A DNA stretch of 64,000 nt from a virus: the IMG/VR virus record IMGVR_UViG_3300036780_000209, positions 64,001-128,000 of that record. One strand, written 5' to 3'. Shown here in pieces: positions 2,126 to 58,339 of this stretch; positions within the stretch are counted from its first letter, which is position 1, and every line of letters starts with the position of its first letter. The position numbers were made by a program, and so were the translations under genes. The notes under the pieces were generated by a model, which did no database searches, was not told the origin of the DNA, and worked only from the letters and a program-made list of their open reading frames with translations.

Positions 2126-2150
2126 TCTTCCCTCCTGCTACTTCCGTGCT

Positions 2151-2303
2151 CTACTTCATCGCGGGCTCAGGCTCCGCCTGGAACTCCGGGCACGGGCCGG
2201 CCTCGCCTCCCTTGCATCCCACTGCCTTGCAGGGCGTGGTGCCGTTGCCGTGGAGTGACCACGGGTGGTTGCAACGAGAGCACTTACCGGGATTCACCGG
2301 CAT
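2151..2303 (-). CDS. Small Cys/His-rich protein, 50 aa (MPVNPGKCSRCNHPWSLHGNGTTPCKAVGCKGGEAGPCPEFQ...)
   Basis: Hand-translated. SD GAGGTG upstream; CxxCxH-x4-H..C..C..C pattern; fills the gap after terL. Confidence 0.7.
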   Translation of the reverse strand: MPVNPGKCSRCNHPWSLHGNGTTPCKAVGCKGGEAGPCPEFQAEPEPAMK

Positions 2304-2374
2304 AAGGTATTCACCTCTTCACGTCAAGATATTGCAAGCTACCCAGTTAGTGTAGTGACTGGGGGTGAGCCTGA

Positions 2375-4477
2375 TCAAGATCGCGACATCCGGCGCGGCG
2401 AGGTGCCCCTGCCCCCGTAGCCTGCCCCGGGACGGCCCGTGCGCCCCATGCCGGAGTGCAGGCCCCGGTGCATCCCCGACTGGCCGAGCGCCAGGCCGAA
2501 CGGGTTGGAGAACTGGCCCGGGTCGAACCGCTTGTACGGGTCGTCGCCGCCGGGGAGACTCAGGCCGGGCCGCTGGCGGGCCAGGTCGCGGCCGAGGAAG
2601 GTGCCCATCTGCTCGCCGAGCAGGGCGGCCGTGACGATCGCGACGCAGTCGGCGATGTCCTTGGTCTGGACCGGGCCCGAGGTAGGGCAGATGACCTTGG
2701 ACTGGCCCTCGGGCTTCTGGAGGAACTTCAGCTCCTGGGCCGCCTCCATGTGCACCGGGGCATGCACCAGCCCCATGTTCAGGCATGCCTTGAAGGTCTC
2801 GTAGGTACTCCAGTTCAGGGCGGCCGTGGCATCGCGGACATAGACCTGGACGTTCTTCTGCAGGTGCCCGGCCCGGACGCGCTTCTGCAGCGCCTGGACC
2901 GTGGCCGGGGCATTGAACTGGTCGAACGTCAGCTCGTCCGGCTGGAACCTGGTGACCACGTTGGAGTAGATCCACTCGATGATCTCGTCGTAGTCCACGA
3001 AGTGATCGTCGTAATCCGCCGGATCCCAGAAGTGGATGAGGTCGAACACCGCGTGATTCAGGCCGTCGGGGCCGGGCTCCTCGTGGGCCAGGGCAAAGCC
3101 GAACCGGCAGTTGACGTTCGAGGGGTCACCGTGCGCCCGGTAGCTGACCAGGAGGGGTCCCCGGACCTGGTTCTCCAGGTGCGGCGGTCCCCAGTCAGGG
3201 TGGCGCTCGCCCCAGTCGGCGAACATGCCGTCCACCCGGGCGGCAGCCAGGTAGGCGTCCATCGCGGTAGCCCAGTTGGACAGGCGCTCCACCCGGAAGG
3301 CGTCCGGATTGGCGCGCTCCTCCTTGCGCATGTTGTCGTCGTAGGCCTGGATCGCCCCGCGCAGCTTTCGGAAGCGGGGAACTTCGGCGTGCTCCTGCAG
3401 GTCCCCCGTGAAGCCAGGCGGGAAGATCTCCAGCTCGTGCGCCCGCTCCCAGTCCTTGTACGGCCCCCAGGAGGGGAGCTGCAGCATGAGCTTGTTCTGG
3501 TAGACCGCCATGAGCTGGTCGTCGTGCAGCTCGCGCTGCAGGGACAGCTCCCACAGCTCGTAGAAGCGCCCTGTCATCTCCCAGGTGGAGCTGGGCAGGA
3601 TGATGAAGGCGTCGGTGCCGAACTGGTCCAGGGACGGGGTGGCGGCATTGTAGACGGCACCGAACTCGCGGGTGATCCCCGCGTTCTTGACGTGGGCGGC
3701 CTCGTCGAACCCGACCAGGAAGCCGGCCTGGCCACGGGGAGCCACCAGGGTGGACTCCCGGGGGACGATCGAGAAGCTCGCCATGTCCCGGGTCGTCCGG
3801 ATGCCCCGGGCTGCCATCTTCCGCATCCGGACGAAATCATAGGGAGCGTAAACCGTCAGCGATTCCGCCAGGGGGGCGGAAATGTATTCCGTGAAGCACG
3901 GGGCCGTCGTGATGACGTTGTAAAGGTCCCCCCAGAGGTTTTCCTTGGCCTGCTCCCTCTTGCTCGCGAAGATCATTGCCGAGAGCTGCTTGTTCGGGTC
4001 AATGCCGTAGTATTCCTGGGGGTTTCCCTTGGCCAGGTAATTCCAGAGCACGTAGGCCATGGCCAGGGAAGAGACATAGCCTTTAGCGCCACGGCGGCCG
4101 ATTGCCAGGATAACCTCGCGGAACCACCGGTAATTGTGTGCTTTCAGCCACGCGATCCGCTCGTAGACATCAGGCTGGATCCCGTTGGTGCGGGCCGTGA
4201 ACTTATTCTCGACTCCGGCGTCAGGGTTGGTCTCGTTGAAGTCGTTGATCCACTCTGCGATGACCTGGTGGTCGTAATCGGTGAACAGGTCGTCGCGGAG
4301 GAAGATGATCTTGAGCAGGGTTGCCTGGCGGGGGTAGAGATTGGGCTTGTCCAGCCAGTGCTCGCTGAGGACGAAGGTGATCGGGTCCGGGACCGGGAGG
4401 TTGTCGTACCACCCGAGCACCTCCAGGGGGTTCATCCCTCCGGTGTCGGGAGCCTCCCAGAAGCCGGGCCTCGGCAT
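2375..4477 (-). CDS. terL: Terminase large subunit
   Basis: Walker A-like GRRGAKG, Walker B GFDEAAH, motif III PSS, RNase H-fold nuclease acidic residues (HGDPS, TFDQFN, KDIAD). Start moved to ATG 4477, coupled to the upstream stop (TGAGATG). Confidence 0.9.
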   Translation of the reverse strand: MPRPGFWEAPDTGGMNPLEVLGWYDNLPVPDPITFVLSEHWLDKPNLYPRQATLLKIIFLRDDLFTDYDHQVIAEWINDFNETNPDAGVENKFTARTNGIQPDVYERIAWLKAHNYRWFREVILAIGRRGAKGYVSSLAMAYVLWNYLAKGNPQEYYGIDPNKQLSAMIFASKREQAKENLWGDLYNVITTAPCFTEYISAPLAESLTVYAPYDFVRMRKMAARGIRTTRDMASFSIVPRESTLVAPRGQAGFLVGFDEAAHVKNAGITREFGAVYNAATPSLDQFGTDAFIILPSSTWEMTGRFYELWELSLQRELHDDQLMAVYQNKLMLQLPSWGPYKDWERAHELEIFPPGFTGDLQEHAEVPRFRKLRGAIQAYDDNMRKEERANPDAFRVERLSNWATAMDAYLAAARVDGMFADWGERHPDWGPPHLENQVRGPLLVSYRAHGDPSNVNCRFGFALAHEEPGPDGLNHAVFDLIHFWDPADYDDHFVDYDEIIEWIYSNVVTRFQPDELTFDQFNAPATVQALQKRVRAGHLQKNVQVYVRDATAALNWSTYETFKACLNMGLVHAPVHMEAAQELKFLQKPEGQSKVICPTSGPVQTKDIADCVAIVTAALLGEQMGTFLGRDLARQRPGLSLPGGDDPYKRFDPGQFSNPFGLALGQSGMHRGLHSGMGRTGRPGAGYGGRGTSPRRMSRS

Positions 4478-4478
4478 C

Positions 4479-4910: not shown

Positions 4911-5442
4911 GAGCGATAGCACCTGCCTGGTTCCTGGTTGCCTGAGGCCAATAAAGACGTACGGCATGTGCAATGGGCATCATCAGCGATGGTGGCGCTG
5001 CGGAGGAAGACTTCCCGAAAAGCCCCAGACTAATGAGACATGGCTCACTATCCCCGGATACGAAGGATGTTATGAAGTCTCTGACTGGGGACGAATCTGG
5101 AGCATCCGACATTTGCGCATGCTTATCCAGACGGAGACCTCTGGCGGTTACCTTCAGGTGACCTTGTGCAGGAACAAGACTCGGCAACAGACAGCGGTTC
5201 ACCAACTTGTAGCGCTCACGTTCATCGGGCCAGTCCCGGCGGGGGAAGAAGTTTGCCACAGAGATGACATCCAGATTCACAACATCCCCAGCAACCTGGA
5301 GTATGGAACCCGGGCTTATAACGCCCAGCAATCGGCAGAGCGCAGAAGGCACAGAAACAGCCGAAAGGAAAAATGCCCAGCATGCGGCCGGGACTACAAG
5401 TCTGAGGGCAAGGACAAGCGGCGTTGCCGACATCATGACTGA
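4909..5442 (+). mobile_element. Free-standing NUMOD4-HNH homing endonuclease gene in inverted orientation
   Basis: N-terminal CxxxxC..CxxH, NUMOD4 (ETWLTIPGYEGCYEVSDWGRIWS), HNH (VHQLVALTFIG..VCHRDD..HN..NLEYGT..N), C-terminal CPACG; visibly lower GC than the flanks. Confidence 0.9.
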
Positions 5443-5446: not shown

Positions 5447-6079
5447 TCACCCCTCACTCTCCTTCCCGGCCAGGACAGGCTGCTGGCCGGTGATGATCGT
5501 CCGCATCCTCGGCGAGGCATAGGCGTCCTCGACGAAACTGCGCCACTGGGGCGGGCTCAGGTAGCCCTGGACCAGCTCGACCAGTTCCATCAGGGCGGCC
5601 TGCCACACGGAGGCGTCGATGCTGTTCTGCTGGGCGGCCTTGTCGATCTGGAGCTGCAGGCTCATCGCCTTGAGCAGGTCCTTGGCAGTGACCTCGATCT
5701 CGCCGCTGGCCAGGCGGGCGTACCCGGCCTGGATCATCGCCTGGGCAGCGTCCGGGACCTTGACCAGGGACAGGTCCTCAGTCCCGTTCTTCCGGCTTTC
5801 GAGCTGCATCCGCATCTGGAGGTGCGGGGCGGCCAGGTGCTCGGTGTGGTCCCTGATGATCTCCGGGTGCGGGCAGGCCGGCCTGCGCCCCTTGAGGAGC
5901 TGGCGGATCGCGGCCGTCGAGTAGCCCTGGGAGAGCATGTCGTCGATCTGGATCAGCCACGGCGACCGGCAGCAGGCGCAGCCGGGGTCAAACGGCTTGT
6001 CGTATTCCCTGCCCCCGATGGAAACCGTCCGGACCTCGATGTCATTCATCGCCGTCGGCGTGATCCCCGTCCCCGACAT
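5447..6079 (-). CDS. Hypothetical protein with CxxC..H..H and HTH-like segment; possible terminase small subunit
   Basis: CACC..IDDMLSQGYSTAAIRQLL..H..H followed by helical C-terminus; TerS guess is positional only. Confidence 0.55.
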   Translation of the reverse strand: MSGTGITPTAMNDIEVRTVSIGGREYDKPFDPGCACCRSPWLIQIDDMLSQGYSTAAIRQLLKGRRPACPHPEIIRDHTEHLAAPHLQMRMQLESRKNGTEDLSLVKVPDAAQAMIQAGYARLASGEIEVTAKDLLKAMSLQLQIDKAAQQNSIDASVWQAALMELVELVQGYLSPPQWRSFVEDAYASPRMRTIITGQQPVLAGKESEG

Positions 6080-6377
6080 AACTATCCAGGCCGTTCTGCA
6101 CCCGCTTAGACGGATAGAATCCGTCCCGGCTGTTCAGGTGCGGGTAGCGCCGGTTCCAGGAGCGCCGGTACATTCCCTTGCGCACCGCCGGGTCGGCGAA
6201 TCCGGTGGAGGTGTACACCTCCTTGGAAATCCGGTCCTCGTATTTCCACTCCGTCAGGATGTCGGACTTGGCACTGCGGCTCGTGACCCCTGCCAGGGAT
6301 TCCCTCAGCAGGCGGTCAGCCTCATCCTCCAGCGCCCTGCTGACTCCGTTCCGGAGCCTCATCTGCGTCATTCTCAT
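6042..6377 (-). CDS. Hypothetical protein
   Basis: Fills the gap between neighbouring minus-strand genes; start uncertain (6377/6371/6362). Confidence 0.55.
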   Translation of the reverse strand: MRMTQMRLRNGVSRALEDEADRLLRESLAGVTSRSAKSDILTEWKYEDRISKEVYTSTGFADPAVRKGMYRRSWNRRYPHLNSRDGFYPSKRVQNGLDSYVGDGDHADGDE

Positions 6378-6699
6378 CAGCTCCAGCACGATTGATCTCG
6401 TCATACAAGAGGCAGAGCCTCTTGAGCCCCTGAGTGGCGTAGATGGCCACCGGGTTGACCGGGGAGACGCCCATGAGCCGGGCGACATCCCTTTCCCGCA
6501 TGTCGTCGTAGAGGAACATCTCGATAGCCTCGGCCTGCCGGGCCGAAAGCTCAGTGCGGCGGTGGTAAAGGGCCTGGATGTCCCACAGGCAGTATTCCTC
6601 GCCGTCTGGCCCCGGGAGGGTATCGACGCCCTCGGTCTCGAACAGCGCCTCGAAAAGCTGCAGGTACCGGAAAAGCTCTCTCAGGGTCCGGTGGTCCAA
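6322..6699 (-). CDS. Sigma-70 region 4-like HTH protein (candidate phage transcription factor)
   Basis: LSARQAEAIEMFLYDDMRERDVARLMGVS..V..YATQGLKRL matches the sigma region 4 pattern; no region 2 visible in 125 aa. Confidence 0.75.
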   Translation of the reverse strand: MDHRTLRELFRYLQLFEALFETEGVDTLPGPDGEEYCLWDIQALYHRRTELSARQAEAIEMFLYDDMRERDVARLMGVSPVNPVAIYATQGLKRLCLLYDEINRAGADENDADEAPERSQQGAGG

Positions 6700-11049: not shown

Positions 11050-14000
11050 TTACCCTCCCATCAGCAGGATGTCATCAAGCCGCCACGAGGTGCGGGCGGT
11101 GCCGTCCTGGAAGTAGCGGCTCTTCCGGACGGTGGCCAGAACCAGGGAACCGGGGCGCAGGAAGCGCACGGCCGTGGTCAGGTCAGGCTCATCATCACGC
11201 CTCGGCTGGAAGACCGCCACGTCCAGCGAGGACACCTCGCTCACCAGGCTGAGCCAGTACATGGTGCCTCCCTTGCGGGTCCGGGCCGCGTGAGCGCCGC
11301 CCGCTACCGCGAGCATCGGGTACGAGCCAGGCTGAGCGCCGGGCAGCATCAGGGCAATGTCCCGGGCCTGCGCCCGGGTGCCGGCCCCGAACCTCTCCAT
11401 CAGGCCGAACACCGAGTCCGACATCCAGCACCCGAAGATCTCGGAATCCAGCCGGAACAGGTCCTGCGGGGAGTACTCCGGGATCATGGACAGGTCCGTC
11501 ACGCCGGGAGGCGTGTAATGCCTGCAGGCCCGGGTGCAGCGCCTGGGCAGCGGCTTGGGCTTGGATTTCAGCTCCCTGCCGGTCTTCTCGCTGATCCGGA
11601 TCGGCACCGGCTCGGTGCTCCAGTTGAAGTGGCACGGCAGCCCCCCGGGGCCGCTGAACCCGTCTTCCTTGTGAACGCACTTCGTGGACTCCCCGGTCCG
11701 GTCTGCCTCCAGGGCCTGCACGACCCCCCTGCGGCTGATCACCAGGGCATCGAGCGCCCCGGACCGGGCCAGGGCATAGAGGACGCCACTGTCCACCTTC
11801 GAGCGCGTGATGAAGTCATCGTAGGAGCTGTACGGCTGCCCGGCCTGGATATCCCGGAGGGCAGCCGGGCCGATGCCCTTGATCGAGGAGAGGCCATAGC
11901 GGACGCCCAGGCCCTCCGGGAGGAAGCTCCCCCCGCAGAACCGCGCATCCGGCGGCAGGATGGTCAGTCCCATCCGGCGGGCGTCAGTCGCATATTCCGG
12001 CATGCGGTCCTTGTCCTTGAGCGTGGAAAGGATCGCGGTGAATGTCTCCACCGGGTAGTGGGCTTTCAGCCATGCAGTCTGGAATGCCAGCACCGCGTAA
12101 CTAACGGAATGGCTCTTGTTGAATCCGTACCTGGCGTACTCCGCCATCTTGTCCCAGATTTCCTGGGCCTTTTCCTGATCAACTCCGTTACTGATGCAAC
12201 GCGAGACGAATTTCTCTCCGGCCGGGCCTATCTTCTCGACCTTCTTCTTCCCGAGAATCTGCCGTACCTCGTCAGCCTCAGCCGAGTCGTAACCTGCCAG
12301 GAGACGGCAGGCTGCCATTACGTCTTCCTGGAACAGCATGATCCCGAAGCGGCTCGAAAGCGTTTCCTCCAGTCGCTCGTGAAGGAAATCGACTTCCTCT
12401 GTCCCGGCCCGGCGGCGGTAATACGACTCCGCCATCCCGGAATTTCGCGGGCCGGGCCGGACGAGAGCCACCAGGTCGGCCAGGTCGGCAATCGAGCGGG
12501 GGCGCATCCGGCGGCAGCCCTGCTGGCCGAGGCTCGTCTCCACCTGGAACATGCCGAGGGTGTGGCCCGACCCGACCTCATCCCAGACCAGCGGGTCGTC
12601 ATACTCGCCGTCCCAGGCGGACACGTCGATCTCCGCGCCGGTTCGCTCGCGGATCAGGTTAACCGCCATCTGCACCGAGTCGAGGGTGCGGATCGTCAGG
12701 AAGTCGAGCTTGAGCATCCCCAGGATGTCGAGGGTCCGGTAGCCCCACTGGCTGATCAGGATGCCCCCCTCCCCGGCCCTCATGGGGAGCTGGCCCTCCA
12801 GGGGGCGGCTCGTGCTGATCACCAGGCCCGCCGGGTGCTTGCCGTAGCTGTTGAGGCGTCCCACGAGCTGCGAGGCATACCCGAAGATGCCGGGGTACTT
12901 GGCGACGTAGGGAGCCAGCAGCTCTTCCTGCTGCTCCATCAGCTCGTCCCAGGGCATGCCCAGGCCGGCCGTGTGGCTCTCCGCCTCGTCGATGATCGAG
13001 GCAATCTGGCGCGAGTCGTCGAACCATTCCTGCGGCAGCTTGTCCCCCATGATCGAGAAGAGCTTGTTCAGCACCCCCTTGCTTCGGTACCGCAGGTGGG
13101 TGCCCACCCGGACCACCTTGTCGGCCCCGTACTTGCCGATCACGTAGTCCTGGATCATGTCCCGCGCCGAGCTGGGGAAGTCCATGTCGAAGTCAGGAAG
13201 CGACGTGCGGCCGGGGGTGACGAAGCGCTCGAACATCAGCCCGTGCTGAACGGGATCCACCGAGGTGATGCGCAGCAGGTAGGCCATCAGGCTGCCCGCA
13301 GCCGAGCCCCGGAACCCCACCAGGATGCCCTGGCTGCGAGCCCACTGGCACACGTCATTGACGATCAGGTAGCACCCGGCAAGCTGCTTCTCGGCGACCA
13401 GCTTCCACTCGCTCTCCAGCCGGTCCAGGTACACGCGGGCCGGAGCGCTCTTCATCGGGCGGGCGGCCCAGGCCTCCATGCACAGGTCGAGCAGCATGGA
13501 GGCGTCCTGGCGGGCTGAGCTGGTGAAGACGGGCGGGTCGGCGTGGCCGCCGATCCGGGCATTGCACATCTCGGCGATCTCGGCGGCGTTCCTGACGGAC
13601 CGGTCCGCGACCTCCGGGCCGAGGTAAGCCAGTGCCTGGCGCGTCTCCTGCTCGGTGTGCATGTGGACGTAATGCCAGAAGTCATCGTTGGCCGGGCTCG
13701 TCTGGCAGGCCATCCAGAGGCGGTGGGTATCGGTCTTGTCGGCCGTGGTGAAGTGCGAGTCCGCCGCCGCGACCAGGGGGATGCCCATGCCGTCGCTGAT
13801 CGAGGCAAGCATCTTGTTCAGCTTGACCTGCTCGGGCAGCGCATTGGTCTGCAGCTCCAGGTAGAAGCGGTCGCCGAGGATCTCGCGGAGCCGGGTGATG
13901 CGCTGGAAGGCCCCCTCGAAATTGCTGCTGAGGAGCTGGCGGGAGACCAGGCCGCCGAGGCAGCCGCTGGTGACGATCAGGCGGCTGCCATAGCGCTCCA

Positions 14001-22216: not shown

Positions 22217-22288
22217 CAGCGCCATCTCGAAGGAGGCCCGCCCGGAGTCGGAACCCGGCCGGACAAGGTTCAGTATAAGGAACCTTGC

Positions 22289-24513: not shown

Positions 24514-24576
24514 TTCAGTGACCTCCGCTCGTTACCCCGGCTCCTGTCCCTTCCCGGGCCTGCCCGGGAATGCGGA

Positions 24577-24609
24577 AGCCCCGCGCCTGCCCGTACCAGG
24601 CGCGGGGCT
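24577..24609 (-). terminator. 13-bp hairpin after the 24639 gene
   Basis: AGCCCCGCGCCTG-N7-CAGGCGCGGGGCT. Confidence 0.5.
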
Positions 24610-24638
24610 CCGAAGGTGAGCGGCCCGAGGGCCTCAGC

Positions 24639-25145: not shown

Positions 25146-25231
25146 GGCCGTGCTCCTGACTGAAAGGAAACTGCTGTCACTGGTTCCCCGCCTGCTGGCA
25201 CCCCCCGACAGTGAGGCGTAATATCTCTCTC

Positions 25232-26961: not shown

Positions 26962-27013
26962 GGTCGGGCCTCCTCTTTCCTTCTCCGGCGGGCGGCGTGC
27001 GGCGACAGCCCGG

Positions 27014-27991
27014 TTACCAGTTGACGAGCCGGGCGCTGGCCCCGGCAGAAGCGACCTTGTCAGCGCGCTCGACGGTGATTGCCTGGCAGTCGGCGACGTT
27101 GACCACCGCGACCTGGCCGCGCCGCATCGGGTGCGCCGAGACAGCGCCCTTGCCGTCATGCCACTTCGTGAGCTTGATCACTGCTCCGTCGCCCCCGGCC
27201 AGGGACAGCGCTGCATGAGTGAAGGCGGCGGGTGCGTGGACGGCCGATGAGCCGGCCCACACCGGGCAGTGAACGGGGAGGTCCCCGGCCTTGACATTGA
27301 TCAGCACGTCATCGCTCCTGGACGAGGTTGCGGGAGGGGGAGGCGGGGCGGCCTTGACCAGGACGTGCCCGGCCAGGGCGGCAGCGGTGGACTGGAAGGC
27401 CGAGCAGTCCACCGGGCCGGCCACCCCGGGCACCTGGGCCTGGCTCGTGAACTGGAGCAGCAAGGGGGTCATCCCGCCGTACGGAGCCCACCAGGCAGAC
27501 GGAACGGACGCATACAGGGCCTGCGGGGTACCGCTCCCGGCGACGTACTCGCTGGCCCAGGTCCAGTCGAAGAAGGTGAGGTCGGCCGAGCCGGTGTACC
27601 AGTGCGGGGCATAGCCGCCGACAGGGTGGTGCGGGTAGTGCTCGCGGACCCGGGCAACTGCCTCCCGGGCCTGGGCGGTGGTGGGGCTGCCGTCAGCAGC
27701 GCGCTCCAGGTCGATCGCAATGCCGAAACCGGTCAGGTCCCCGGCATTAGCCGCGAACCAGTCGGCCTGCTCGGTGCCGGTGCCCGTGGCATCCATGAAG
27801 AAGTAAGCGAGCGGGATGAATCCGCTTGCCTTCGCCCGGGCCAGCAGGGCCGGCTTGGCGGCGGGCCAGTACGGGTTCGCGTACTTGGTGCCCTCGGTGA
27901 CCTTCTCGGCCCCGAATTCCGTGGACTCGTCCGTGACGGCCCAGTTGACATTGCCCTGGAAGCTGGATGCGTCAATCCCGAAGATGGTCAC
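27014..27991 (-). CDS. Endolysin, GH25 muramidase with Pro linker and C-terminal domain
   Basis: GIDASSFQG.VNW, KVTEG..Y.NP, IDLE (DxE), LLQFTS, VDCS. Confidence 0.9.
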   Translation of the reverse strand: MTIFGIDASSFQGNVNWAVTDESTEFGAEKVTEGTKYANPYWPAAKPALLARAKASGFIPLAYFFMDATGTGTEQADWFAANAGDLTGFGIAIDLERAADGSPTTAQAREAVARVREHYPHHPVGGYAPHWYTGSADLTFFDWTWASEYVAGSGTPQALYASVPSAWWAPYGGMTPLLLQFTSQAQVPGVAGPVDCSAFQSTAAALAGHVLVKAAPPPPPATSSRSDDVLINVKAGDLPVHCPVWAGSSAVHAPAAFTHAALSLAGGDGAVIKLTKWHDGKGAVSAHPMRRGQVAVVNVADCQAITVERADKVASAGASARLVNW

Positions 27992-28024
27992 ATAGCTTCC
28001 GGGGAGAGTCCGGGGCTACGGCAG
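27992..28024 (-). promoter_or_regulatory. Candidate phage late promoter CTG-N22-GAAG-N4 (endolysin, leaderless)
   Basis: CTGCC..CCCCGGAAG-ctat-GTG; same spacing at six other late genes. Confidence 0.65.
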
Positions 28025-28363
28025 GATCAGGCCGCCCCTGGGGAGGGTGACCCGCTGCGGGGCCTGATCCGTCTTCTGGTTGGCCTCGACCTCAGCCCGG
28101 ACCTTCTCGTAGAGGGACCGGACCACCCGGTCCACGGCAGCCTGGGGAGCATAGGGATCCGGGACGTGATCGATGTGCGTGACGTGATCCCCCGGCGCGG
28201 ACTGCATGAACAGCGCGACGGCGTAGGTGGTGATCATCTCCTCGCCCATCGGCACCATCACCGGGATGATCTCGTGATCAATCTGATCCCGCTCGACGGC
28301 CAGGATCGGAAGGTTCTTTATGCCGTCCAGGACCTTTTGGTTGAACCTGTCCGCAAGCCTCAT
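28016..28363 (-). CDS. Hypothetical protein
   Basis: TGATG coupling to the SNF2 gene. Confidence 0.7.
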   Translation of the reverse strand: MRLADRFNQKVLDGIKNLPILAVERDQIDHEIIPVMVPMGEEMITTYAVALFMQSAPGDHVTHIDHVPDPYAPQAAVDRVVRSLYEKVRAEVEANQKTDQAPQRVTLPRGGLILP

Positions 28364-30238: not shown

Positions 30239-30304
30239 AGGTTACAGGGAAACCTGCCTGGTGTCTCCCCTGCGCTTGTGCATTACAAGGTTCCTTGGTA
30301 AACT
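30239..30304. promoter_or_regulatory. Divergent sigma70-type promoters, each with an operator-like palindrome
   Basis: Plus: TTGTGC-N17-TAAACT containing perfect CAAGGTTCCTTG (30286-30297). Minus: GAGACA-N17-TAACCT containing CAGGTTTCCCTG (30245-30256). Confidence 0.7.
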
Positions 30305-41466: not shown

Positions 41467-41515
41467 GCTGCCTCCCCTCCGTACTTCCGGGGACCAGGGG
41501 AAGGTTCACCAGCCG

Positions 41516-44491: not shown

Positions 44492-44492
44492 G

Positions 44493-47009
44493 TCAGCCTC
44501 CGGGAGTAGGGCCGATATTCGGGGCGCTGCCGAGGCCGCCTGCGAGGGGAAGCCCGATCAGGCGGCCGTTGGAGTCCCCGTCACTTCCGGGGAGCCGGGC
44601 GGGGGCCGCTATGTTCACCGTGGTATTGAAGAATCCCCCCTGGCCCATCTGGAAGGAATGCGTCACCGTGGTGCAGTAAGCCTGGAACCCGAAGGCCGGG
44701 ACTTGGATAAGCATTCCGGGCCACAGTTCCGGCATGAACGTCATCGGCACGTCGGCGTTGTACTGATAGGCCCACTGGCGCTGGAAGAGGAACAGGGCAC
44801 TGAAAAACTCCCCCTGAGGGCCGACTACCCCGGGGAGCTGCTGGAAATCAGGCCGGGCACCGAACCGGTTGTACACGTAGCTGATGAATTTCTGCGCCTG
44901 CTGCTTCGTGGGCTCCAGGCCGAAAAGGGAGTACATGATCGCCGGGATATCGATAGTCGCGACTCCGCTGGTGGTCACCGCGTTCAGGGGTCCGACATTA
45001 TCGATGGTGGCCGTCTGCAGGTTAAGCGCCTGGTTTGAGTAGGGGGCCACCGTGTACTGGTGCGTGACGAAGTTCGTGTCATCCCAGTAGACCGTGAAAT
45101 CCTGCAGCTCGATCGGCTCGATCCGCATGATGGCCGCCGTTCCCCAGACTCCGTAATAGTCCGGGAACCAGGCGATGAAGTCACCGTTGGGAGCCGAGCT
45201 GAAACTCCTCATGGTGGAATTAAGCAGGTTCTTAAGATAGGGGAGCAGCGGCTGGTCATTCAGCAATGCCCTGACCCCGGTGAGGGCAGCGGAAGTAGCC
45301 ATGTCAACGGTATCCACCTGAGGCACCCAGGGAGAGGCACCGAAGAGCTTCTCGAATGGGTCCGACGGGTTAAACCAGGGCTGTGAGTTGGAAGTAGTGA
45401 GCTGCAGGCCGCCTGCGTCCAGCGTGCCGACGCCGCCACTCGGGGTACCGCCGGCGGTACCCGAGTAATCCGTGTTGGGGGCCAGCCCGGCGAAGGTCCA
45501 GTACCCGGCGCTCGTCCCTTCGCCCGCGAACGTTCCCTGCTGGTGAGCGCCGATCGTGTTCTGCCCGTCCCCGACGCTGATCTCCGTATGGCCGACCCCG
45601 TTGATGCTGCCGTTGCCGGAGTGGTACATGAGCGCCCCGGGGGTATTCATCCCCTGCTTCGCGGTGATCATCTTGCCCCGGGCCTTGCACCAGCCGGCCT
45701 GCGCTGACGCGGTGCGCGGGCAGCCGTTCAGGTTGCCGAAGGTGTGGAAGATCACCCACTGGACGAAGGAGCTGCAGTCAAGGACGGACGGATTCGGGTC
45801 ATTCGGCGGCGAGTCACTGCCGAGCTGATAGGGGATGCTCGGATCGGACGAGACCAGGTTCTCGGCCGTCTGCAGGATGGCCGTGCCACTGGCTTTTCCG
45901 GACTTCCAGTTACTGGAAAGCTGGCCGAAAGCCGGGGAATTGCCGAGGGAGGTTCCCCCTTGCCCCTTGACCAGGATATTGACGATCTGGGTCGCCATCT
46001 CCTTGAACTGGTCGTAGTAATCCGGGCCGACACCCGGGCGCTGCACCGTGACGACGACCTGGCCCGGGTCCTGGGTAAGCCGGTTGGGCACCGTCTGCTC
46101 GACGGAGAAGAACTTGCGGGTCGCGTACTGGGCGTTAGTGACCTGGGCGACTGTTCCCCATCCCTGGGACGGGCGCTGCTGGAACAGGCCGTAGGCCTGG
46201 GCGCTGTTCGGCGTCTGGATGTTGGTGAGATGCGACTCGCCCATGGCGCACTCGATGCCGATCACCGCGTCCTGCGCCGTGAGGCCCATGCTCATGGCCG
46301 TGTTGTAGATCAGGACCGCGTTGCCGGTCTCATCCGTGGACAGGGCCTGCCCTCCGTAGGTGCCGGCCTTGAGGGCATTGCTCGCCACCGTGCCGCCGCC
46401 GAGCTTGCCGCCGACGGTGCCGTTGCCGGACAGGACCGCGTAGAACTGCTGGGCCAGGGCGTCCGCCTCTTCGAGGTCGGTGTTCACGTCCTTGGCGATC
46501 TTGTAAGCCCACTTGAACCAGCTCTGCGGGATGCCCGCGATGTGCACCTTGGTCGGGGGCCAGCCGACGACGTTGTTCATGATGGACAGCACGGCGTTGG
46601 AGACACCGCCGTCATCGGGGTTCTTGACGGCCGTGAGAGCCGTGTTGACGAGAGAAGTCGCCGCCTCGGTGCCCGGGTCCCAGAACCAGTACTGGAGCCT
46701 CTTGAGGCTGCAGGAGGCCGTGAGCTGGACCACCTGGGGCCACGCGGTCACCAGGGGCACCGCGTTCAGGTAGCCGGTGAAAACGCGCAGCCAGGTCAGC
46801 CGCTTCATCATGACGATGATGCGGTCGTTGGGGGTAAAGACGCCGTCGTACTTGCGCCGGGCGTTCTGCAGGGAGAACGAGAACGTGGAAATACCGTCGC
46901 TGCGGCGCGACAGGTTGCCCTGGGTAAGGTCCTCGCTGATATCCAGGATACCGTTATCCTGCGTGGATATGTAGACCTTGATTCCCGGCGCGTAAAGGAA
47001 TACCGACAT
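44493..47009 (-). CDS. Baseplate hub with lysozyme-like and NlpC/P60 peptidoglycan hydrolase domains
   Basis: Hub-like termini (LDISED..SFSLQN; FMPELWPGM.I..Y...VTH); AMGES..GLFQQRPSQGWG; Y..G..LDCSSFV..GHTEI..GAH. Confidence 0.85.
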   Translation of the reverse strand: MSVFLYAPGIKVYISTQDNGILDISEDLTQGNLSRRSDGISTFSFSLQNARRKYDGVFTPNDRIIVMMKRLTWLRVFTGYLNAVPLVTAWPQVVQLTASCSLKRLQYWFWDPGTEAATSLVNTALTAVKNPDDGGVSNAVLSIMNNVVGWPPTKVHIAGIPQSWFKWAYKIAKDVNTDLEEADALAQQFYAVLSGNGTVGGKLGGGTVASNALKAGTYGGQALSTDETGNAVLIYNTAMSMGLTAQDAVIGIECAMGESHLTNIQTPNSAQAYGLFQQRPSQGWGTVAQVTNAQYATRKFFSVEQTVPNRLTQDPGQVVVTVQRPGVGPDYYDQFKEMATQIVNILVKGQGGTSLGNSPAFGQLSSNWKSGKASGTAILQTAENLVSSDPSIPYQLGSDSPPNDPNPSVLDCSSFVQWVIFHTFGNLNGCPRTASAQAGWCKARGKMITAKQGMNTPGALMYHSGNGSINGVGHTEISVGDGQNTIGAHQQGTFAGEGTSAGYWTFAGLAPNTDYSGTAGGTPSGGVGTLDAGGLQLTTSNSQPWFNPSDPFEKLFGASPWVPQVDTVDMATSAALTGVRALLNDQPLLPYLKNLLNSTMRSFSSAPNGDFIAWFPDYYGVWGTAAIMRIEPIELQDFTVYWDDTNFVTHQYTVAPYSNQALNLQTATIDNVGPLNAVTTSGVATIDIPAIMYSLFGLEPTKQQAQKFISYVYNRFGARPDFQQLPGVVGPQGEFFSALFLFQRQWAYQYNADVPMTFMPELWPGMLIQVPAFGFQAYCTTVTHSFQMGQGGFFNTTVNIAAPARLPGSDGDSNGRLIGLPLAGGLGSAPNIGPTPGG

Positions 47010-48984: not shown

Positions 48985-48997
48985 TGCACCTCCTCCC

Positions 48998-49030
48998 CTT
49001 GCTTCCGGGGATGAGGAGGGGGTTTGCCAG
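48998..49030 (-). promoter_or_regulatory. Candidate phage late promoter (baseplate operon)
   Basis: CTGGC-N20-GAAG-caag-G, overlapping the divergent -35 at 49024. Confidence 0.6.
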
Positions 49031-49053
49031 GTTACAGGTTTCTTTGATAAAAT
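49024..49053 (+). promoter_or_regulatory. Sigma70-type promoter with operator-like spacer
   Basis: TTGCCA-N18-TAAAAT containing CAGGTTTCTTTG (49035-49046). Confidence 0.7.
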
Positions 49054-51218: not shown

Positions 51219-53596
51219 CGGCTGGCCTGCGCCGCCCAGGCGTTGGCGGGGATCGTTCCCATCGCCGCCGAGGTGTCGTAACTGCCCGGGAGCAGCTTAA
51301 GGAGCTGCCTGGCCTCGCTGGACAGGGTCACCATGTACGAGGCCCCGCCCGCCTGGCCGTGCCCTGGCGTCGCGCTGAATCCAGGGTGCTGCTTGACCCA
51401 CTTTGCCCAAGACAGGCCCTGATTCGCGCCGGCCTTCTGTCCCATCTCCGCCGAGGTGGATACCGACGGGTCCACCAGCCCGTGGGTGAGGGCGCTGGTG
51501 TTGCCGAGAACCTTGCCCTTGGAGTCGTAGAACTCGACGTTGCCCGCCATCAGCTCGTCAGGGTAGAACTTCATGGCCGCCGAGAGGGACATCACCCGGG
51601 GGCCGCTGCGGGTCAGCACGCGCACCTGGTCGCTGCTGCTGGCATTCTGCAGGAGGGCCTCCAGCACCGGGCTCCGCTGCTTGCTCTTGCGCACTTCCGA
51701 CAGGTAGGCACTCGCCGCCTGGGACCCCCCGGCTGCGCCCCGGAGGGTGGCCTGCCACCCGGACCCGGTCGCCAGTCCGTACTTACCGGTCGCGGCAGTG
51801 GGAGAGCCACCCATGCCGGTGGGCTGGGCACTGCCCCCCTGGTTGCGCGCCGCCTGAGCCTCATTCTGGCCGCCGACCTGGTGGACAATCCACTGCATGA
51901 CATTCTGCGGATTGACCGGCGCTCCGGTCTGCGAGGAAATGACGGAAGCCCACACGTTCAGGTTGATGTTGTCGGGGACCTGGTAGACGTTAAGGAACTG
52001 GTTGGCAATCTGGTCCACCAGGTCAGGCGTCAGGTTACCGCCCGCCGCGCCGATCATCTGCTTGAGGCCGGCCAGCTCCTGCGGTGTCATGATCTGCTGG
52101 ATGACCGACATGTTCTGGCCTGACTGCATGGTCAGGACCGCACTCGGGTTCGTGCGCGAGAGGTACTGGTACTGAGCCGGGGTGATGCCGTACTGGCCAG
52201 AGGTAATGATCTGCTGCTGGTAAGAGAATTCCCCGCCGAAGTTAGCCCCGGCGAACTGCTTCCCGTAAGAGGCCTGCATCTGGGCAAGCCCTCCCGCAAG
52301 GCCGACGGCCCCCGGGCCAGCGCCCTGCTGCAATGCGGACTGGAAATAGCTCTGGAAAGCCTGGCGCGCATTATTCGCATTATCCCCGGCCCGGCCGGCC
52401 ACGTCGCTCAGGGAGGTGATGGACCCGGAAAGCTGGTCAAGCGAAATGGTCGAGTTCTGGACAGCAGTCTGCAGGATGGAGGTGGACTGGTTAACGTCCA
52501 TCCCGTTAGCGGTGAAGTTGTGGTAGACGAAGTCCAGCGCCGACTGGCGGTTCTGCATCTGGCCCGACTGGCTGGTGTCCCGGCGGCCGAAGCCGAGGGC
52601 AGTGACATCGCCGAACGACTCACCTGCCGCCTGGGGCGTCATGGCGCTCCACATCATGGAGGTCTCGTAGAGCTTCTCGTGCAGCCGCTCCGCCTGGGCT
52701 TCGAGGTTGGAGCCGCCCTCGATCTGCTGGTACGGCCGGGCCGCCTCGCGCTGATTGCGGAGCCAGCCGGGGACGCCGCCGCCGCCGACTCCCGCGATGT
52801 CCGCGAGGAGCCCCACGCCCGGGATGCTCTTGAGAGCGCCGAGGACGCCACCGCCCGGGCTGCTGCCCATGGCCACCCGTGCGCCGAACTGCTGGACCGC
52901 CGCCAGGACTCCCGGGTTCAGGTTCGGGTAGCGCTGCGTCAGGACCCCGGCGAGGCCGGTGTAACCTCCGGTCGGCGGGGGGATAGGACCGCCGGGAGGC
53001 GCGGAGGGAGTTGTCCCGCCGCCGCCGCCTCCCGGAGGCGTGGCCGGCGCTCCGCCCAGGGCGGTATAGGCAGCGTTGTAGCTCATGCCGCCGCCGCCGG
53101 TACCGCCTCCGGCCCCGCCGCCGCCTGCGCCGGAAGCCTGCTGGATGAGCAGTGCGAGCTGGGACATGAGCTGGCTCGTCCCGGTGGTGCTCGTTGGGGT
53201 CCCGGCCGGCGTCCCGCCGCTGCCCGGCGAGGGAGCCGCAGGCTGGTAGAGCGGGACTCCGGCGACCCACTGGCCGATCCGCTGGGCGGCATAGGTCTGC
53301 AGGTTGCTCATCGAGGTGAGCGCTCCTGTAGGGCTCATCTGGGTGAGGCTGGCGTACCCGGGCATGCCGCCCTGGGAGGCCACCTGCTGGATGACGTTCT
53401 GCCGCATCTGGGGCTGGCCGCCCATGTTGTAGCGGAGCGAGGCGTTGATCGTCTGCTCCAGCATCTGGGTCTGGCGGCCGATCGTCCGCTCCAGGGAGCT
53501 GAGGCGGTCGATCATGACGCTGAATCCCTCGGCGAGCTGGAACCCCGCGTCCGGGTTGACATCCATGTCCGGGCGCGGAGGCGTCGGCATGGTCAT
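51215..53596 (-). CDS. Tape measure protein (probable)
   Basis: Directly after the frameshifted chaperone pair; A/G/Q-rich helical composition. Confidence 0.7.
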   Translation of the reverse strand: MTMPTPPRPDMDVNPDAGFQLAEGFSVMIDRLSSLERTIGRQTQMLEQTINASLRYNMGGQPQMRQNVIQQVASQGGMPGYASLTQMSPTGALTSMSNLQTYAAQRIGQWVAGVPLYQPAAPSPGSGGTPAGTPTSTTGTSQLMSQLALLIQQASGAGGGGAGGGTGGGGMSYNAAYTALGGAPATPPGGGGGGTTPSAPPGGPIPPPTGGYTGLAGVLTQRYPNLNPGVLAAVQQFGARVAMGSSPGGGVLGALKSIPGVGLLADIAGVGGGGVPGWLRNQREAARPYQQIEGGSNLEAQAERLHEKLYETSMMWSAMTPQAAGESFGDVTALGFGRRDTSQSGQMQNRQSALDFVYHNFTANGMDVNQSTSILQTAVQNSTISLDQLSGSITSLSDVAGRAGDNANNARQAFQSYFQSALQQGAGPGAVGLAGGLAQMQASYGKQFAGANFGGEFSYQQQIITSGQYGITPAQYQYLSRTNPSAVLTMQSGQNMSVIQQIMTPQELAGLKQMIGAAGGNLTPDLVDQIANQFLNVYQVPDNINLNVWASVISSQTGAPVNPQNVMQWIVHQVGGQNEAQAARNQGGSAQPTGMGGSPTAATGKYGLATGSGWQATLRGAAGGSQAASAYLSEVRKSKQRSPVLEALLQNASSSDQVRVLTRSGPRVMSLSAAMKFYPDELMAGNVEFYDSKGKVLGNTSALTHGLVDPSVSTSAEMGQKAGANQGLSWAKWVKQHPGFSATPGHGQAGGASYMVTLSSEARQLLKLLPGSYDTSAAMGTIPANAWAAQASR

Positions 53597-53621
53597 GTCG
53601 TTCCTCCTACCCTTCCAGGCT

Positions 53622-54805: not shown

Positions 54806-55122
54806 GCCGCCGGGGGCGTGCCGATCATGGCCGTGAAGACGGCGGTGCCGATGGGGCTGCCATCCTGCTCGGCATAGGTATCGCCGAAGCTGTCGGTGAC
54901 GGTGACGGCCATGACCTCCTGGGTCGTCTGGTTCACGCTGACCGTGGTGTCAGCGCTCACCGCCTGGCCCGAGGCGTCGGTTGCGGTTGCGGTGACCGTC
55001 AGCGAGACGACACTGGTCGAGCCGTCGCTGTAGGTCGCGGTCACGACGATGGTGTCGCCTACGTCGTAAGTGGTCTTGTCCGTGGCCAGCGAGAGCGTCG
55101 GCCCTGGGGTTGGCGTAGTCAA
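54802..55122 (-). CDS. Ig-like Thr-rich virion accessory protein
   Basis: LATDKTTYDVGDTIVVTATY..LTVTATATDASG; SD GGAGG + TTG 55122. Confidence 0.7.
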   Translation of the reverse strand: MTTPTPGPTLSLATDKTTYDVGDTIVVTATYSDGSTSVVSLTVTATATDASGQAVSADTTVSVNQTTQEVMAVTVTDSFGDTYAEQDGSPIGTAVFTAMIGTPPAA

Positions 55123-55154
55123 GGGGTGAATCCCTCCGTGCGGAAGCTGCCTTC

Positions 55155-55502
55155 CTAACTTCCGGGGGCAGGAGCGGCTCCCGACTGGCGAGCAGCCCAG
55201 GCCCGCAGTGCGGCACCGGAGATCCGGCCGCGCTCTCCGCACGGTATCCCCTGATCCCGGGCAAAGGCCCGGATGGCAGCCGACTCGGCCGCCGGGGTCC
55301 GCTTCCTCCTGGCCTTCTGCTTGCGCTTGCGCCCGGCGGTCACGTAGGCATAGAACCGGTCCCGCATCTCCCGGTAATGCAGCTCGGTGAGGTCAATCTC
55401 GTAATCCTCACCGTCAAAGCTGAACAATACGGTACAGTCCGCCACCAGCTCCGGATTAAGGTCATCCTTACGAGTAACGGCAACTTCCTGGACCACCGGC
55501 AT
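55155..55502 (-). CDS. lsr2: Lsr2 nucleoid-associated protein
   Basis: DDL..TV.F.FDG..YEIDL dimerisation domain; IRAFA..G.....RGRI AT-hook domain. Confidence 0.93.
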   Translation of the reverse strand: MPVVQEVAVTRKDDLNPELVADCTVLFSFDGEDYEIDLTELHYREMRDRFYAYVTAGRKRKQKARRKRTPAAESAAIRAFARDQGIPCGERGRISGAALRAWAARQSGAAPAPGS

Positions 55503-55560
55503 TTACCTCCTCCGTGACATTACCCAGGTAATCCACGGATCATATCACAGGAAATGAAAG

Positions 55561-56088: not shown

Positions 56089-56101
56089 TTCTCATTCCCT
56101 C

Positions 56102-57631
56102 TCAGGGAGACAGGGCATTCTGCGCAGACTGCGTCGTCACGGTGCCGGTGTTGAGGTTGAGCGAGTACTGCACCTGGATGTAGTTCATCGGGATGAACGG
56201 CATGTATTCGAAGGTGCAGGACAAGATGGTCGGATCGCCGGACGGCGGGGCCTGCTGCACGACTGTCACGTTCGTGTAGTCCGAGATGACCCCCTGGGTG
56301 ATGGCCTGCTCCAGGATCGAGGTGAGGGCCGCCTGAACGGTGGCTACCGAGGTCGTCGCGATCGGGGACCCGATCAGGCCCGAGGAGGTGAAGCCCTGGG
56401 TCACCAGGAGGGCGAGGATGTCGCCCTGGCGGACCATGGAGATCTCCCGGTCGTTCAGGGTGTCCATGTCCGTGGTCAGGCCCTGGCGGACCACCAGGAC
56501 ACCGTCCCAGCGCCGGAAGACGATGCATGCGCCCGAGCTGGCCAGGGAGTTCATGAAGCTCTGGGTCATGTTGGTGATCTCAAGCTGGGTGAGGCCGCCG
56601 AAACCGGACAAGGTCTGCTGGGTCAGGCCCGTGCTGATCGGGAGGGTGGACAGGATCGCGCCCAGGGCGACCGCGAGATAGCAGCCACTGGCATTGAAGA
56701 TCGCATTGGTGATCGAGTTGAAGCCGATCACGATCTCCGGGTAGGCCAGGACCAGCCGCCGGCTGGAGAGCAGGGCGCACAGGTTCGGGATGGGCTCGTC
56801 GTTCTCGGAGTAGTTGCGCGGCAGGCCGAAGAACCCGATGCGGGGATAGCCCGCGTTGCTCGCGTTGGTGCAGGCCAGGGCCAGGTCATTGGCCAGGTTG
56901 CCGGCGAAGGCCGCGACGGTGCCGCTCGGGGGGGTCAGGTCGTCACTGAAAACGGGCACCACGATGGTCGCGCTGACCAGGTTGGCGAGCTTGGCGTAAG
57001 CCGAGATGAACTGGGCTTCGAGGTTCCCGTCAGCCGGGTTGAGCGCCACGGTGTAGATCGTGTTGGCCTGGTTCGCGAAGGCGACCTGGGCGGCGTAGCT
57101 GAGCGGGTTGGCGACCTGGGTAGCGTTCGGCGTCGTCGGGATGGAGGAGACGAACGGGCTGCCATAGGCGTTCAGCACGGACTGGTAGTCGGTGAAAACC
57201 TGCGGCTGGTAGTAGGTGATGTCCGCGTAGTTGTACCGGACGGTGACCTGCTGCCCCTCGGTGACGTTCGGGCTGGTGTTGACCCGGAGCACCGAGGTGA
57301 TCGCCAGGGCGCTGTTGCCGGACGGGTCCGGGGTCACGGTCAGGGAGTAATCCACCCCCGAGGTCAGGATCGTTCCGGCCACGTTGGTCACCACGGGAGC
57401 GCCGATGGCCGGAGGGCCGGTCACCGCCGTGGTGAACACCCCGCCGAAGGTGAGCTGGGTGGGCACGGTGGAGGAGATCAGGAAGGACTGGACGGCCGAC
57501 CGGAATCCCAGGGCCGGCCCGCAGATGGCAAGCACCTGCTGCGGCACGCCCGTGCTCGTGATCACGGGCACCGTGGTGTTCGTGACGTAGACGCCCGGAG
57601 CCTGGTACGTCGTGAAGGTCGTGACGGTCAT
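56102..57631 (-). CDS. Tail sheath protein
   Basis: N-terminal Y.APGVYV; AVALGA..LT...L.GF; L...G......V.QGLTT..REIS.VR; FEY.P.IPMNYI.V. Confidence 0.92.
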   Translation of the reverse strand: MTVTTFTTYQAPGVYVTNTTVPVITSTGVPQQVLAICGPALGFRSAVQSFLISSTVPTQLTFGGVFTTAVTGPPAIGAPVVTNVAGTILTSGVDYSLTVTPDPSGNSALAITSVLRVNTSPNVTEGQQVTVRYNYADITYYQPQVFTDYQSVLNAYGSPFVSSIPTTPNATQVANPLSYAAQVAFANQANTIYTVALNPADGNLEAQFISAYAKLANLVSATIVVPVFSDDLTPPSGTVAAFAGNLANDLALACTNASNAGYPRIGFFGLPRNYSENDEPIPNLCALLSSRRLVLAYPEIVIGFNSITNAIFNASGCYLAVALGAILSTLPISTGLTQQTLSGFGGLTQLEITNMTQSFMNSLASSGACIVFRRWDGVLVVRQGLTTDMDTLNDREISMVRQGDILALLVTQGFTSSGLIGSPIATTSVATVQAALTSILEQAITQGVISDYTNVTVVQQAPPSGDPTILSCTFEYMPFIPMNYIQVQYSLNLNTGTVTTQSAQNALSP

Positions 57632-57652
57632 GCAGACGCCTCCCTGGTGGTC

Positions 57653-57685
57653 ACTCCTTCCAGGGAGCTACAGGCCGGAGGGCAG
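57653..57685 (-). promoter_or_regulatory. Candidate phage late promoter (sheath)
   Basis: CTGCC-N20-GAAG-gagt-G. Confidence 0.6.
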
Positions 57686-58327
57686 GCCAGGGGGGAACTG
57701 CGGCGGCGTGGTTATCAGCGAGTTCGCGGCCGGGAATCCCTCGATGGTGGCGACCACCTGGATCTCGCGCAGATTGACCATCTCCACGGCGGCCGGGTCG
57801 GTCACGAACTCACCCAGAACCTGGATGGCCAGGCCGCGCTCGTAGATCACGTCGTCAGATCCCCAGGGGGTCCCCGGAGCGGCCTGCTCGCCCCGGGGCT
57901 CGATCGTGTCGTAGGACCAGTTCGTCGCGATCATGTCGTTGGCCTCGACGTACTGCCGGAACGGACTGGGGGCAACGGACTGGGCGGCGAAGGCGAGCAT
58001 GGCGATGACCTGGTCATAGATCAGGTCGCACTCGTTGCTGACGTTGAGGGCAGCGATGGTGAAGGACACGTGGCCGGTGAACCGCCAGCGGGTCAGCAGG
58101 TTGCCGGACAGGTCGAACTCGGTGTAGGCGATGCCCGCGATTTTCAGCTCGGCAGCCTCGTAGTTGACCCACACGGCAGGGTAGGCGGTCGGCACCTGGG
58201 GGTAATCCACGGAGCAGAAAACGGGCTGGGAGCCGCCCGCCGGGTCGGTCTCCGGGTAGGTGATCATGAACGCCGACTTGATGGCCTCGACGGCCGTCGT
58301 CTTGATCTCCCTCAGGTACCCGCTCAC
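57668..58327 (-). CDS. Tail terminator/completion protein (probable)
   Basis: Upstream of the sheath; DYP...YPAVWV; no SD (leaderless candidate). Confidence 0.65.
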   Translation of the reverse strand: MSGYLREIKTTAVEAIKSAFMITYPETDPAGGSQPVFCSVDYPQVPTAYPAVWVNYEAAELKIAGIAYTEFDLSGNLLTRWRFTGHVSFTIAALNVSNECDLIYDQVIAMLAFAAQSVAPSPFRQYVEANDMIATNWSYDTIEPRGEQAAPGTPWGSDDVIYERGLAIQVLGEFVTDPAAVEMVNLREIQVVATIEGFPAANSLITTPPQFPPGLPSGL

Positions 58328-58339
58328 ATATCTTCCGGG

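Follow-up and report, generated by a model that had tools for sequence, protein, structure and literature searches.

Late promoters of phage T4 carry TATAAATA at position -10 and are read by gp55 together with gp33 and the sliding clamp; at T4 gene e, the late start sites fall within a hairpin by which the early read-through RNA conceals its ribosome site. The Thermus phage phiYS40 produces leaderless middle and late transcripts, the start-associated sequences of cluster K mycobacteriophages include the Shine–Dalgarno sequence and lie at a nearly fixed distance from the start codon, and divided or partial sigma systems are known from T4 (gp55 with gp33), Bacillus (SigO-RsoA) and SPO1 (gp33/gp34). 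Here we describe a nine-base box, CCCCGGAAG, that lies directly upstream of tail, lysis and other late genes in an uncultivated, metagenomic phage and its relatives. The stretch analysed, hereafter the window, comprises 64,000 nucleotides (bases 64001-128000 of the 166,498-bp IMG/VR record IMGVR_UViG_3300036780_000209); positions refer to the window unless the genome is named. Comparison among phages marks the box as a real, conserved and clade-specific upstream signal of late genes, and it is probably the core of a clade-specific late promoter that gives leaderless or short-leader mRNAs.

Eight copies of CCCCGGAAG occur in the window, against 1.55 ± 1.23 expected, and none of 100 shuffles reaches eight. 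The strand-specific 60 nt upstream of gene starts make up 3.2% of sequence space in the whole genome, and 6 of the 13 genomic copies fall within this zone (14.5-fold enrichment, p = 1.5e-6). The same zone holds 21 of the 30 copies in the loci of relatives (20-fold, p = 2e-24), and the bias is absent for the reverse complement of the box and for six one-mismatch variants. We gathered the sheath neighbourhoods of 16 relatives; the box is conserved across relatives whose sheath proteins are 54-85% identical to that of the window, and we refer to those at 72-85% identity as close relatives and to those at 54-63% as more distant ones. Across five complete relatives, the 9-mer is found 57 times on the late-gene strand and 10 times on the opposite strand, with 17 occurrences of a reversed-pattern control. 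The initial annotation had named an equal frequency inside genes or on the other strand as a result that would count against its motif; CCCCGGAAG is instead enriched in the zone upstream of gene starts, and on one strand only.

The signal also emerged from analyses that did not presuppose it. An unbiased comparison of 8-mers in 11 relatives ranked CCCGGAAG first, ahead of Shine–Dalgarno words, with occurrences in 35 of 241 upstream regions and 3 of 619 coding windows (p = 2.5e-17). When a matrix trained on the sites of relatives only was run over the genome, the nine top matches were all on the minus strand and just upstream of genes; five belong to sites that had been listed earlier (27996, 58332, 57657, 49002 and 55159) and four lie beyond the window. 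At the sheath gene, the box is found upstream in 12 of 12 relatives, 21-42 nt before the start codon, in intergenic DNA that has otherwise diverged. The genes behind the box encode the sheath, a baseplate protein, a minor tail protein, the endolysin, a holin-like protein and a tailspike-type domain, functions from which we infer late expression. Our literature search found no description of CCCCGGAAG or of the late promoters of this clade.

The initial annotation had proposed a recurrent bipartite motif, CTG-N22-GAAG, at eleven minus-strand sites, and all eleven are present at the coordinates and with the spacings that it gave. Their membership in the box family holds in part: the sites at 26980 and 25183 fail the box matrix, those at 2141 and 53612 are borderline, and the others score 13-18.5, the range of good sites in this genome. 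Sites are named here by the position of GAAG; the matrix adds two candidates in the window.

27991-28025, minus strand: endolysin site, the best; CCTGCC (-35-like) at 28020-28025, box CCCCGGAAG at 27996-28004; score 18.5, the top match of the genome
27991, minus strand: GTG start of the GH25 endolysin, 4 nt after GGAAG, no Shine–Dalgarno sequence
58327-58340, minus strand: site of a 219-amino-acid gene; box GCCCGGAAG at 58332-58340, immediately behind the TAG that ends the preceding gene; score 16.9
58327, minus strand: GTG start of the 219-amino-acid gene, 4 nt after GGAAG, no Shine–Dalgarno sequence
57652-57686, minus strand: putative promoter of the tail sheath gene; CCTGCC at 57681-57686, box CCCTGGAAG at 57657-57665, transcription predicted from the G at 57652
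48997-49031, minus strand: site of a 358-amino-acid virion-region gene; CCTGGC at 49026-49031, box CCCCGGAAG at 49002-49010, ATG at 48984; score 16.3
41479-41513, minus strand: site of a 145-amino-acid baseplate protein gene (phrog_2669); GCTGGT at 41508-41513, box CCCCGGAAG at 41484-41492, GTG at 41466; score 13.3
55154-55167, minus strand: site of a 106-amino-acid gene; box CCCCGGAAG at 55159-55167, CAG instead of CTG upstream; score 15.5
24545-24612, minus strand: site of a 619-amino-acid gene; box CCCGGGAAG at 24550-24558, TTG at 24513; score 13.6
53607-53620, minus strand: weaker site of a 793-amino-acid gene; box GCCTGGAAG at 53612-53620, ATG at 53596; score 9.8, borderline
2136-2149, minus strand: site of a 1334-amino-acid gene; variant box GCACGGAAG at 2141-2149, ATG at 2125; score 8.0, borderline
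5457-5470, minus strand: added candidate; GCCGGGAAG at the 3' end of a 210-amino-acid gene; score 14.3
44579-44592, minus strand: added candidate; CCCCGGAAG within the end of an 895-amino-acid gene; score 14.6
26975-27008, minus strand: unconfirmed; CTGTC at the right spacing, poor box CCGGAGAAG; score 5.0
25178-25211, minus strand: unconfirmed; CTGTC at the right spacing, poor box GCGGGGAAC; score 3.2

Elsewhere in the genome, further box sites lie at genome positions 9113, 21242, 56279, 56770, 128231, 140756 and 141141. The GTG at 27991 is taken as the endolysin start because an in-frame TAG occurs nine codons upstream with no start codon in between, and because the GH25 profile aligns from residue 6. 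For the gene at 58327, which the initial annotation had called a tail terminator, the only family match of the 219-amino-acid product is a PHROG of unknown function; the 4-nt spacing recurs in the orthologues of most relatives, with the N-terminal sequence VSGYLREIKTT conserved as well. Counted from the putative start base, the sheath leader would be 20 nt long, contain a Shine–Dalgarno sequence and lead to the ATG at 57631. At 55159, a 36-nt gap with a hairpin (GGAAGgcagCTTCC) separates the box from the TTG start at 55122; nine relatives keep this box, and seven of them add a CTTCCGG-type arm before the Shine–Dalgarno sequence. Orthologues of the 793-amino-acid gene behind the borderline 53612 site have full CCCCGGAAG boxes, and at 2141 the CTG lies one base further upstream than at the other sites. 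The candidate at 5462 precedes an ATG with a Shine–Dalgarno sequence near 5433, in the terminase module, and that at 44584 lies 88 nt upstream of the start of a 991-amino-acid gene in the tail-fibre region.

Family-wide, the conserved sequence reads C-C-C-[C/G/T]-GGAAG; a weakly conserved N-W-R-Y comes next and leads to a purine. At this position, the fifth after GGAAG, the 61 sites have G 41 times, A 13 times, C 7 times and never T, that is, a purine at 54; the initial annotation had reported a purine at this position, and it is present at all eleven of its sites. Past this base, and at every fixed offset on the upstream side, the family-wide sites show no conservation. Measured to the first start codon of the reading frame behind the box, the interval from GGAAG has a sharp peak at 4 nt, with 13 genes compared with about 2 at each other distance. 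All 13 genes start with ATG or GTG, and the 4-nt genes surveyed for a Shine–Dalgarno sequence have none, whereas the other box genes have 11-45 nt between GGAAG and the start codon and an ordinary Shine–Dalgarno sequence. Two genes appear leaderless in some phages and leadered in others, with the same box in front. The 4-nt peak, the restriction to ATG and GTG, the missing Shine–Dalgarno sequences and the end of conservation thus fit a transcription start 5 nt after GGAAG, which would place the box between -13 and -5. For leaderless translation in mycobacteria, an ATG or GTG at the 5' terminus is required and is enough (PMC4633059). The three putatively leaderless starts of the genome share the sequence ATGTGA (window 27989-27994 and 58325-58330; genome 128224-128229), in which AT comes before the GTG start and A after it, so that an out-of-frame ATG-TGA start-stop overlaps the real start; one relative (L012) also has ATGTGA at a leaderless start.

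The upstream half of the proposed bipartite motif has a narrower distribution. Taken literally, CTG-N22-GAAG is not over-represented in the window (11 occurrences against 8.9 ± 2.8 expected; 22 of 100 shuffles reach 11). The offset of the triplet is nevertheless non-random: of the 19 box sites of this genome, 7 have CTG at -24 from GGAAG, the top combination of triplet and offset, with a family-wise P of about 0.001-0.002 (0.1-0.2% of trials in the sampling controls). At the sheath gene, CCTGCC or TCTGTCC occurs at exactly the same spacing in the window and its four closest relatives (72-85%); the spacer between this block and the box varies in sequence, and the block is non-coding in two of the four close relatives. 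Here block and box have the geometry of a -35/-10 pair, and with the inferred start the CCTGCC block would span -34 to -29. The motif therefore appears to be bipartite only in the window lineage and its 72-85% relatives, not in the wider family.

The phage record is a single contig with 66.7% G+C that CheckV rates as complete, and nearly all window genes are on the minus strand according to a gene call based on codon usage. The genome encodes DNA polymerase III alpha, a primase-polymerase, RecA/UvsX and the GH25 endolysin. Its tail sheath is about 27% identical to the sheaths of actinobacteriophage myoviruses (Myrna, Gordonia phages and Rhodococcus E3). At least 120 sheath-related protein clusters exist, most of them 54-63% identical to the window sheath; several sit on contigs of 148-166 kb, and one carries the label of an Actinomycetia metagenome-assembled genome. 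On the basis of the sheath similarity, the Actinomycetia label and the Lsr2 genes present in relatives, the host is inferred to be an actinobacterium. A megablast comparison of 20 kb with isolated phages gave no matches, as did a locus search among viral contigs with a single protein; the relatives' loci were obtained by a search with an alignment query.

Host-type promoters are distributed differently from the box. A scan for TTGNNN-N16-19-TANNNT found none on either strand of the late block (window 24-64 kb), whereas the genome outside this block has 21 intergenic sites, several with a CAAGG-N2-CCTTG operator or half-sites in the spacer. The full palindrome in these spacers, (T)ACAAGG-N2-CCTTG(T), is the strongest de novo motif in the upstream regions of the genome. 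It occurs at window positions 22277-22286 and 30287-30296, and genome-wide at 12653, 21511, 26188, 29610, 41279, 46453, 132719, 135544, 151681 and 165737; it marks a second, separate regulon that is apparently early.

Some boxes stand where upstream transcription is expected to end or to run the other way. Those at 24550 and 64231 (past the window end) follow 15-16-bp hairpins by 18-20 nt; the 24550 box sits 18 nt after a 16-bp hairpin at 24573-24612 (-35 kcal/mol), and the other hairpin lies at genome 128255-128288 (-32 kcal/mol). Both hairpins are G+C-rich, with stems of 16 and 15 bp and no U-tract, and are likely to be terminators at unit boundaries. The 49002 box lies in a divergent intergenic region and, like its orthologue in one relative (L004), follows a divergently transcribed gene. 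With a strong hairpin or a divergent gene just before the box, a transcription start is needed there. Facing away from the 49002 box is a host-type promoter, TTGCCA-18-TAAAAT with TG (49024-49053, plus strand), which points to small plus-strand reading frames and suggests a divergent control region.

We propose that CCCCGGAAG is the -10-positioned core of a late promoter class in a clade of roughly 145-166-kb actinobacterial myoviruses. The first transcribed base would be the purine five positions past GGAAG; the window phage and the relatives nearest to it would have, in addition, a weak CCTGCC/CTG element spanning -34 to -29. Where the start codon lies exactly 4 nt after GGAAG, as at the endolysin, the 219-amino-acid tail gene and others, the mRNA would be leaderless and translated without a Shine–Dalgarno sequence; elsewhere a leader of about 10-40 nt with an ordinary Shine–Dalgarno sequence would be made. 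We favour this reading because of the strand and position specificity of the box, its conservation, the 4-nt class, the point at which conservation ends, the lack of host-type promoters in the late block and the sites that follow hairpins. A promoter with leaderless starts, as the initial annotation had suggested, therefore seems the best fit to all of the computed evidence, with its bipartite form limited to the window lineage.

Several observations weigh against a promoter. Several copies of the box fall within genes, and to our knowledge the box is unlike the -10 elements of actinobacteria (TANNNT). The CTG half is found at 2 of 40 sites in the more distant relatives, where no other triplet sits at a fixed offset. 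Scanning all six frames of the whole genome with the sigma region 2 profile (Sigma70_r2) gave no match, and a scan for DxDGD, aimed at two-barrel polymerases, gave two irrelevant matches only. At a subset of sites the box forms the 5' half of a hairpin stem, the 3' half of which borders the Shine–Dalgarno sequence, and 5.5 of the 9 box bases are paired with downstream sequence, compared with 4.5 in control copies (p = 0.003). This pairing counts against a promoter only if the box is itself transcribed.

These folding results bear on the alternative in which the box acts in RNA, either as a site at which a host or phage ribonuclease or RNA-binding protein would cleave long late transcripts ahead of each cistron, so that the short or leaderless 5' ends would come from processing instead of initiation, or as the 5' arm of regulatory hairpins. 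Read-through is possible at most sites, which lie between co-oriented genes; hairpins that have the box as their 5' arm and end next to the Shine–Dalgarno sequence recur in the orthologues of the 55159 gene, and in one relative (L010) a variant box, CCCGGGAAG, is matched by a variant arm, CTTCCCGGG. In long RNAs, box genes also have their Shine–Dalgarno sequences hidden by pairing more frequently than other genes do (unpaired probability 0.27 against 0.37, p = 0.008). However, such hairpins form at a subset of sites only, the overall folding energy at box sites equals that of controls, and removal of the upstream arm releases the Shine–Dalgarno sequence no more in box genes than in control genes. 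Sites after strong hairpins or divergent genes need a promoter within about 30-90 nt, where no host-type promoter is found, and a CCTGCC block held at a fixed distance across a variable spacer in the DNA is unexpected for a cleavage site. We therefore consider an RNA function unlikely, although it is the strongest of the rival explanations. At the 49002 site, an anti-Shine–Dalgarno sequence, CCTCCTC, shortly before the box is able to pair with GAGGAGG, the Shine–Dalgarno sequence, whose unpaired probability would rise from 0.02 in a long RNA to 0.60 in RNA from the proposed start. A layout like that of T4 gene e, with the box in a hairpin arm that hides the Shine–Dalgarno sequence, is tentatively proposed for individual sites; the hairpins may be accessories of particular leaders, silencing read-through RNA, rather than the function of the box.

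That the box is instead a translation signal, whether a non-canonical ribosome-binding or start-associated sequence or a site for re-initiation after the upstream stop, is the least probable of the explanations considered. It would account for the closeness of the box to start codons, for its taking the place of the Shine–Dalgarno sequence in the 4-nt class and for the TAG stops that often adjoin it, and on reasoning alone GGAAG could form base pairs, two of them wobbles, with the extreme 3' end of the 16S rRNA of actinobacteria. Yet the box does not behave like a Shine–Dalgarno or start-associated signal, for which a near-constant distance and complementarity to 16S rRNA are expected: it lies anywhere from 4 to about 45 nt before the start, at 4 nt it is far out of register for anti-Shine–Dalgarno pairing, and leadered genes have a separate, normal Shine–Dalgarno sequence. 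Orthologues keep the box even where the upstream gene context differs, and a variant that would be a better Shine–Dalgarno sequence, CCCCGGAGG, is upstream of genes in none of its 17 copies. Hardly more probable is a promoter that the phage exploits through an alternative sigma factor of the host. The genome scans found no complete phage sigma factor or RNA polymerase, and the -35/-10-like geometry in the window lineage fits a holoenzyme of the sigma-70 family; the box, however, is shared by phages that have diverged in the rest of their regulatory and intergenic DNA, and no actinobacterial sigma consensus similar to CCCCGGAAG is known to us, which also speaks against a host factor.

If the box is a late promoter, as we prefer, its reader is presumably the RNA polymerase of the host, steered to the box by at least one phage factor that we did not recognize. 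The initial annotation had put forward one gene as encoding the reader:

6322-6699, minus strand: stand-alone sigma region 4-like protein of 125 amino acids, identified by Pfam and a structure model

The match of this protein to Pfam Sigma70_r4_2 scores 24.6 bits in the protein scan (cut-off 25.7) and 25.8 bits in the six-frame scan. Its structure model has a predicted local distance difference test (pLDDT) score of 86.5, and the 21 best structural matches are all sigma chains over region 4 or isolated region 4 domains (Z 5.9-7.5), so that the model confirms the predicted region 4 fold. Across the family the protein is 50-79% identical, with a near-invariant recognition helix, and the upstream CTG element is not conserved across the relatives in which this helix is. 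The gene follows a terminator-like hairpin in an A+T-rich region and has no late box.

The proposed role fared less well than the fold. A distant relative (L015/G006; 151,624 bp, sheath match 36% identical) encodes a homologue at E 1.4e-36 and shows neither enrichment nor strand bias of the box, which weakens the case for the protein as its reader; in the 21 kb around the sheath gene of this relative, CCCGGAAG is not enriched and no obvious shared late motif is present. Nor did a region 2 partner emerge. In six-frame searches of the genome, the TIGR02937 sigma profile gave only sub-threshold matches, led by the region 4 gene, and general profiles for sigma-70 and extracytoplasmic function (ECF) factors detected nothing in the genome besides the region 4 protein. 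A six-frame search for a T7-type RNA polymerase had no match but was uninformative, the control being matchless too, and Pfam searches with six large unknown proteins returned nothing polymerase-like. No fused, longer homologues of the 125-amino-acid protein were found, which is weak evidence. Language-model and structure look-ups of both neighbours of the gene gave weak leads to a terminase small subunit and a UvsY-like protein, and nothing sigma-like. The 210-amino-acid protein encoded after the region 4 gene (5447-6079, minus strand) has weak matches to Terminase_2, Terminase_5 and Mu gp27-like proteins, which makes it a possible small subunit for the terminase of the terL module. As a speculative and rather doubtful extension, the box could be read by a phage-encoded specificity system that escaped recognition, for example a divided sigma factor made up of the region 4 protein and an undetected partner, which would redirect the actinobacterial RNA polymerase to leaderless late genes.

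Set beside the known systems, the late promoters of T4 are the closest parallel. As in T4, one short conserved element occupies the -10 position at late genes without a family-wide -35 element, the sequence information being confined to -13 to +1, and host-type promoters are missing from the late block. The start-in-hairpin layout of gene e has a counterpart at a few sites, such as 49002, with weak statistical support. In contrast to T4, the box is G+C-rich and unrelated in sequence, the window lineage adds the weak -35-like CCTGCC, and neither a gp55-like nor a region 2-like protein was detected with the general sigma profiles. The 4-nt class resembles the leaderless mRNAs of actinobacteria (PMC4633059) and of phiYS40 in starting at the inferred 5' end, with ATG or GTG only and no Shine–Dalgarno sequence, and the putative actinobacterial host group translates leaderless mRNAs well. 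The difference is that those cases have a host-type TANNNT or TATAAT about 7 nt upstream, whereas here the element is CCCCGGAAG, ahead of a predicted 5' end. With the start-associated sequences of cluster K the box shares its nature as a short conserved motif directly upstream of many actinobacteriophage genes, but it is separate from the Shine–Dalgarno sequence and its distance to the start varies. The stand-alone region 4-like protein, conserved in the family and with a host-type promoter region of its own, recalls the divided sigma systems, from which it differs in that it has no detected region 2 partner and is not linked to the box.

The box offers a simple, testable marker for recognizing the late transcription units of actinobacterial soil phages in a large clade known only from metagenomes; the clade includes the sheath-protein clusters counted above and several complete genomes of about 160 kb. 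For annotation, it would fix the starts of genes without a Shine–Dalgarno sequence, which are otherwise mis-called, and would separate late genes from operator-controlled early genes. It also poses the question of what reads a G+C-rich, -10-positioned element in a phage without a recognizable sigma region 2 or RNA polymerase. Should a new specificity factor be found, promoter and factor could serve as a compact orthogonal pair for high-G+C hosts.

A variant of the box, CACGGAAG, was tried as a lineage-specific consensus and rejected for want of genome-wide enrichment; it occurs at single sites in relatives. Beyond the window, a stretch that is gene-poor in our gene call extends over genome positions 141.5-150 kb, and the context of the GGAAG matches there resembles tRNA arms.

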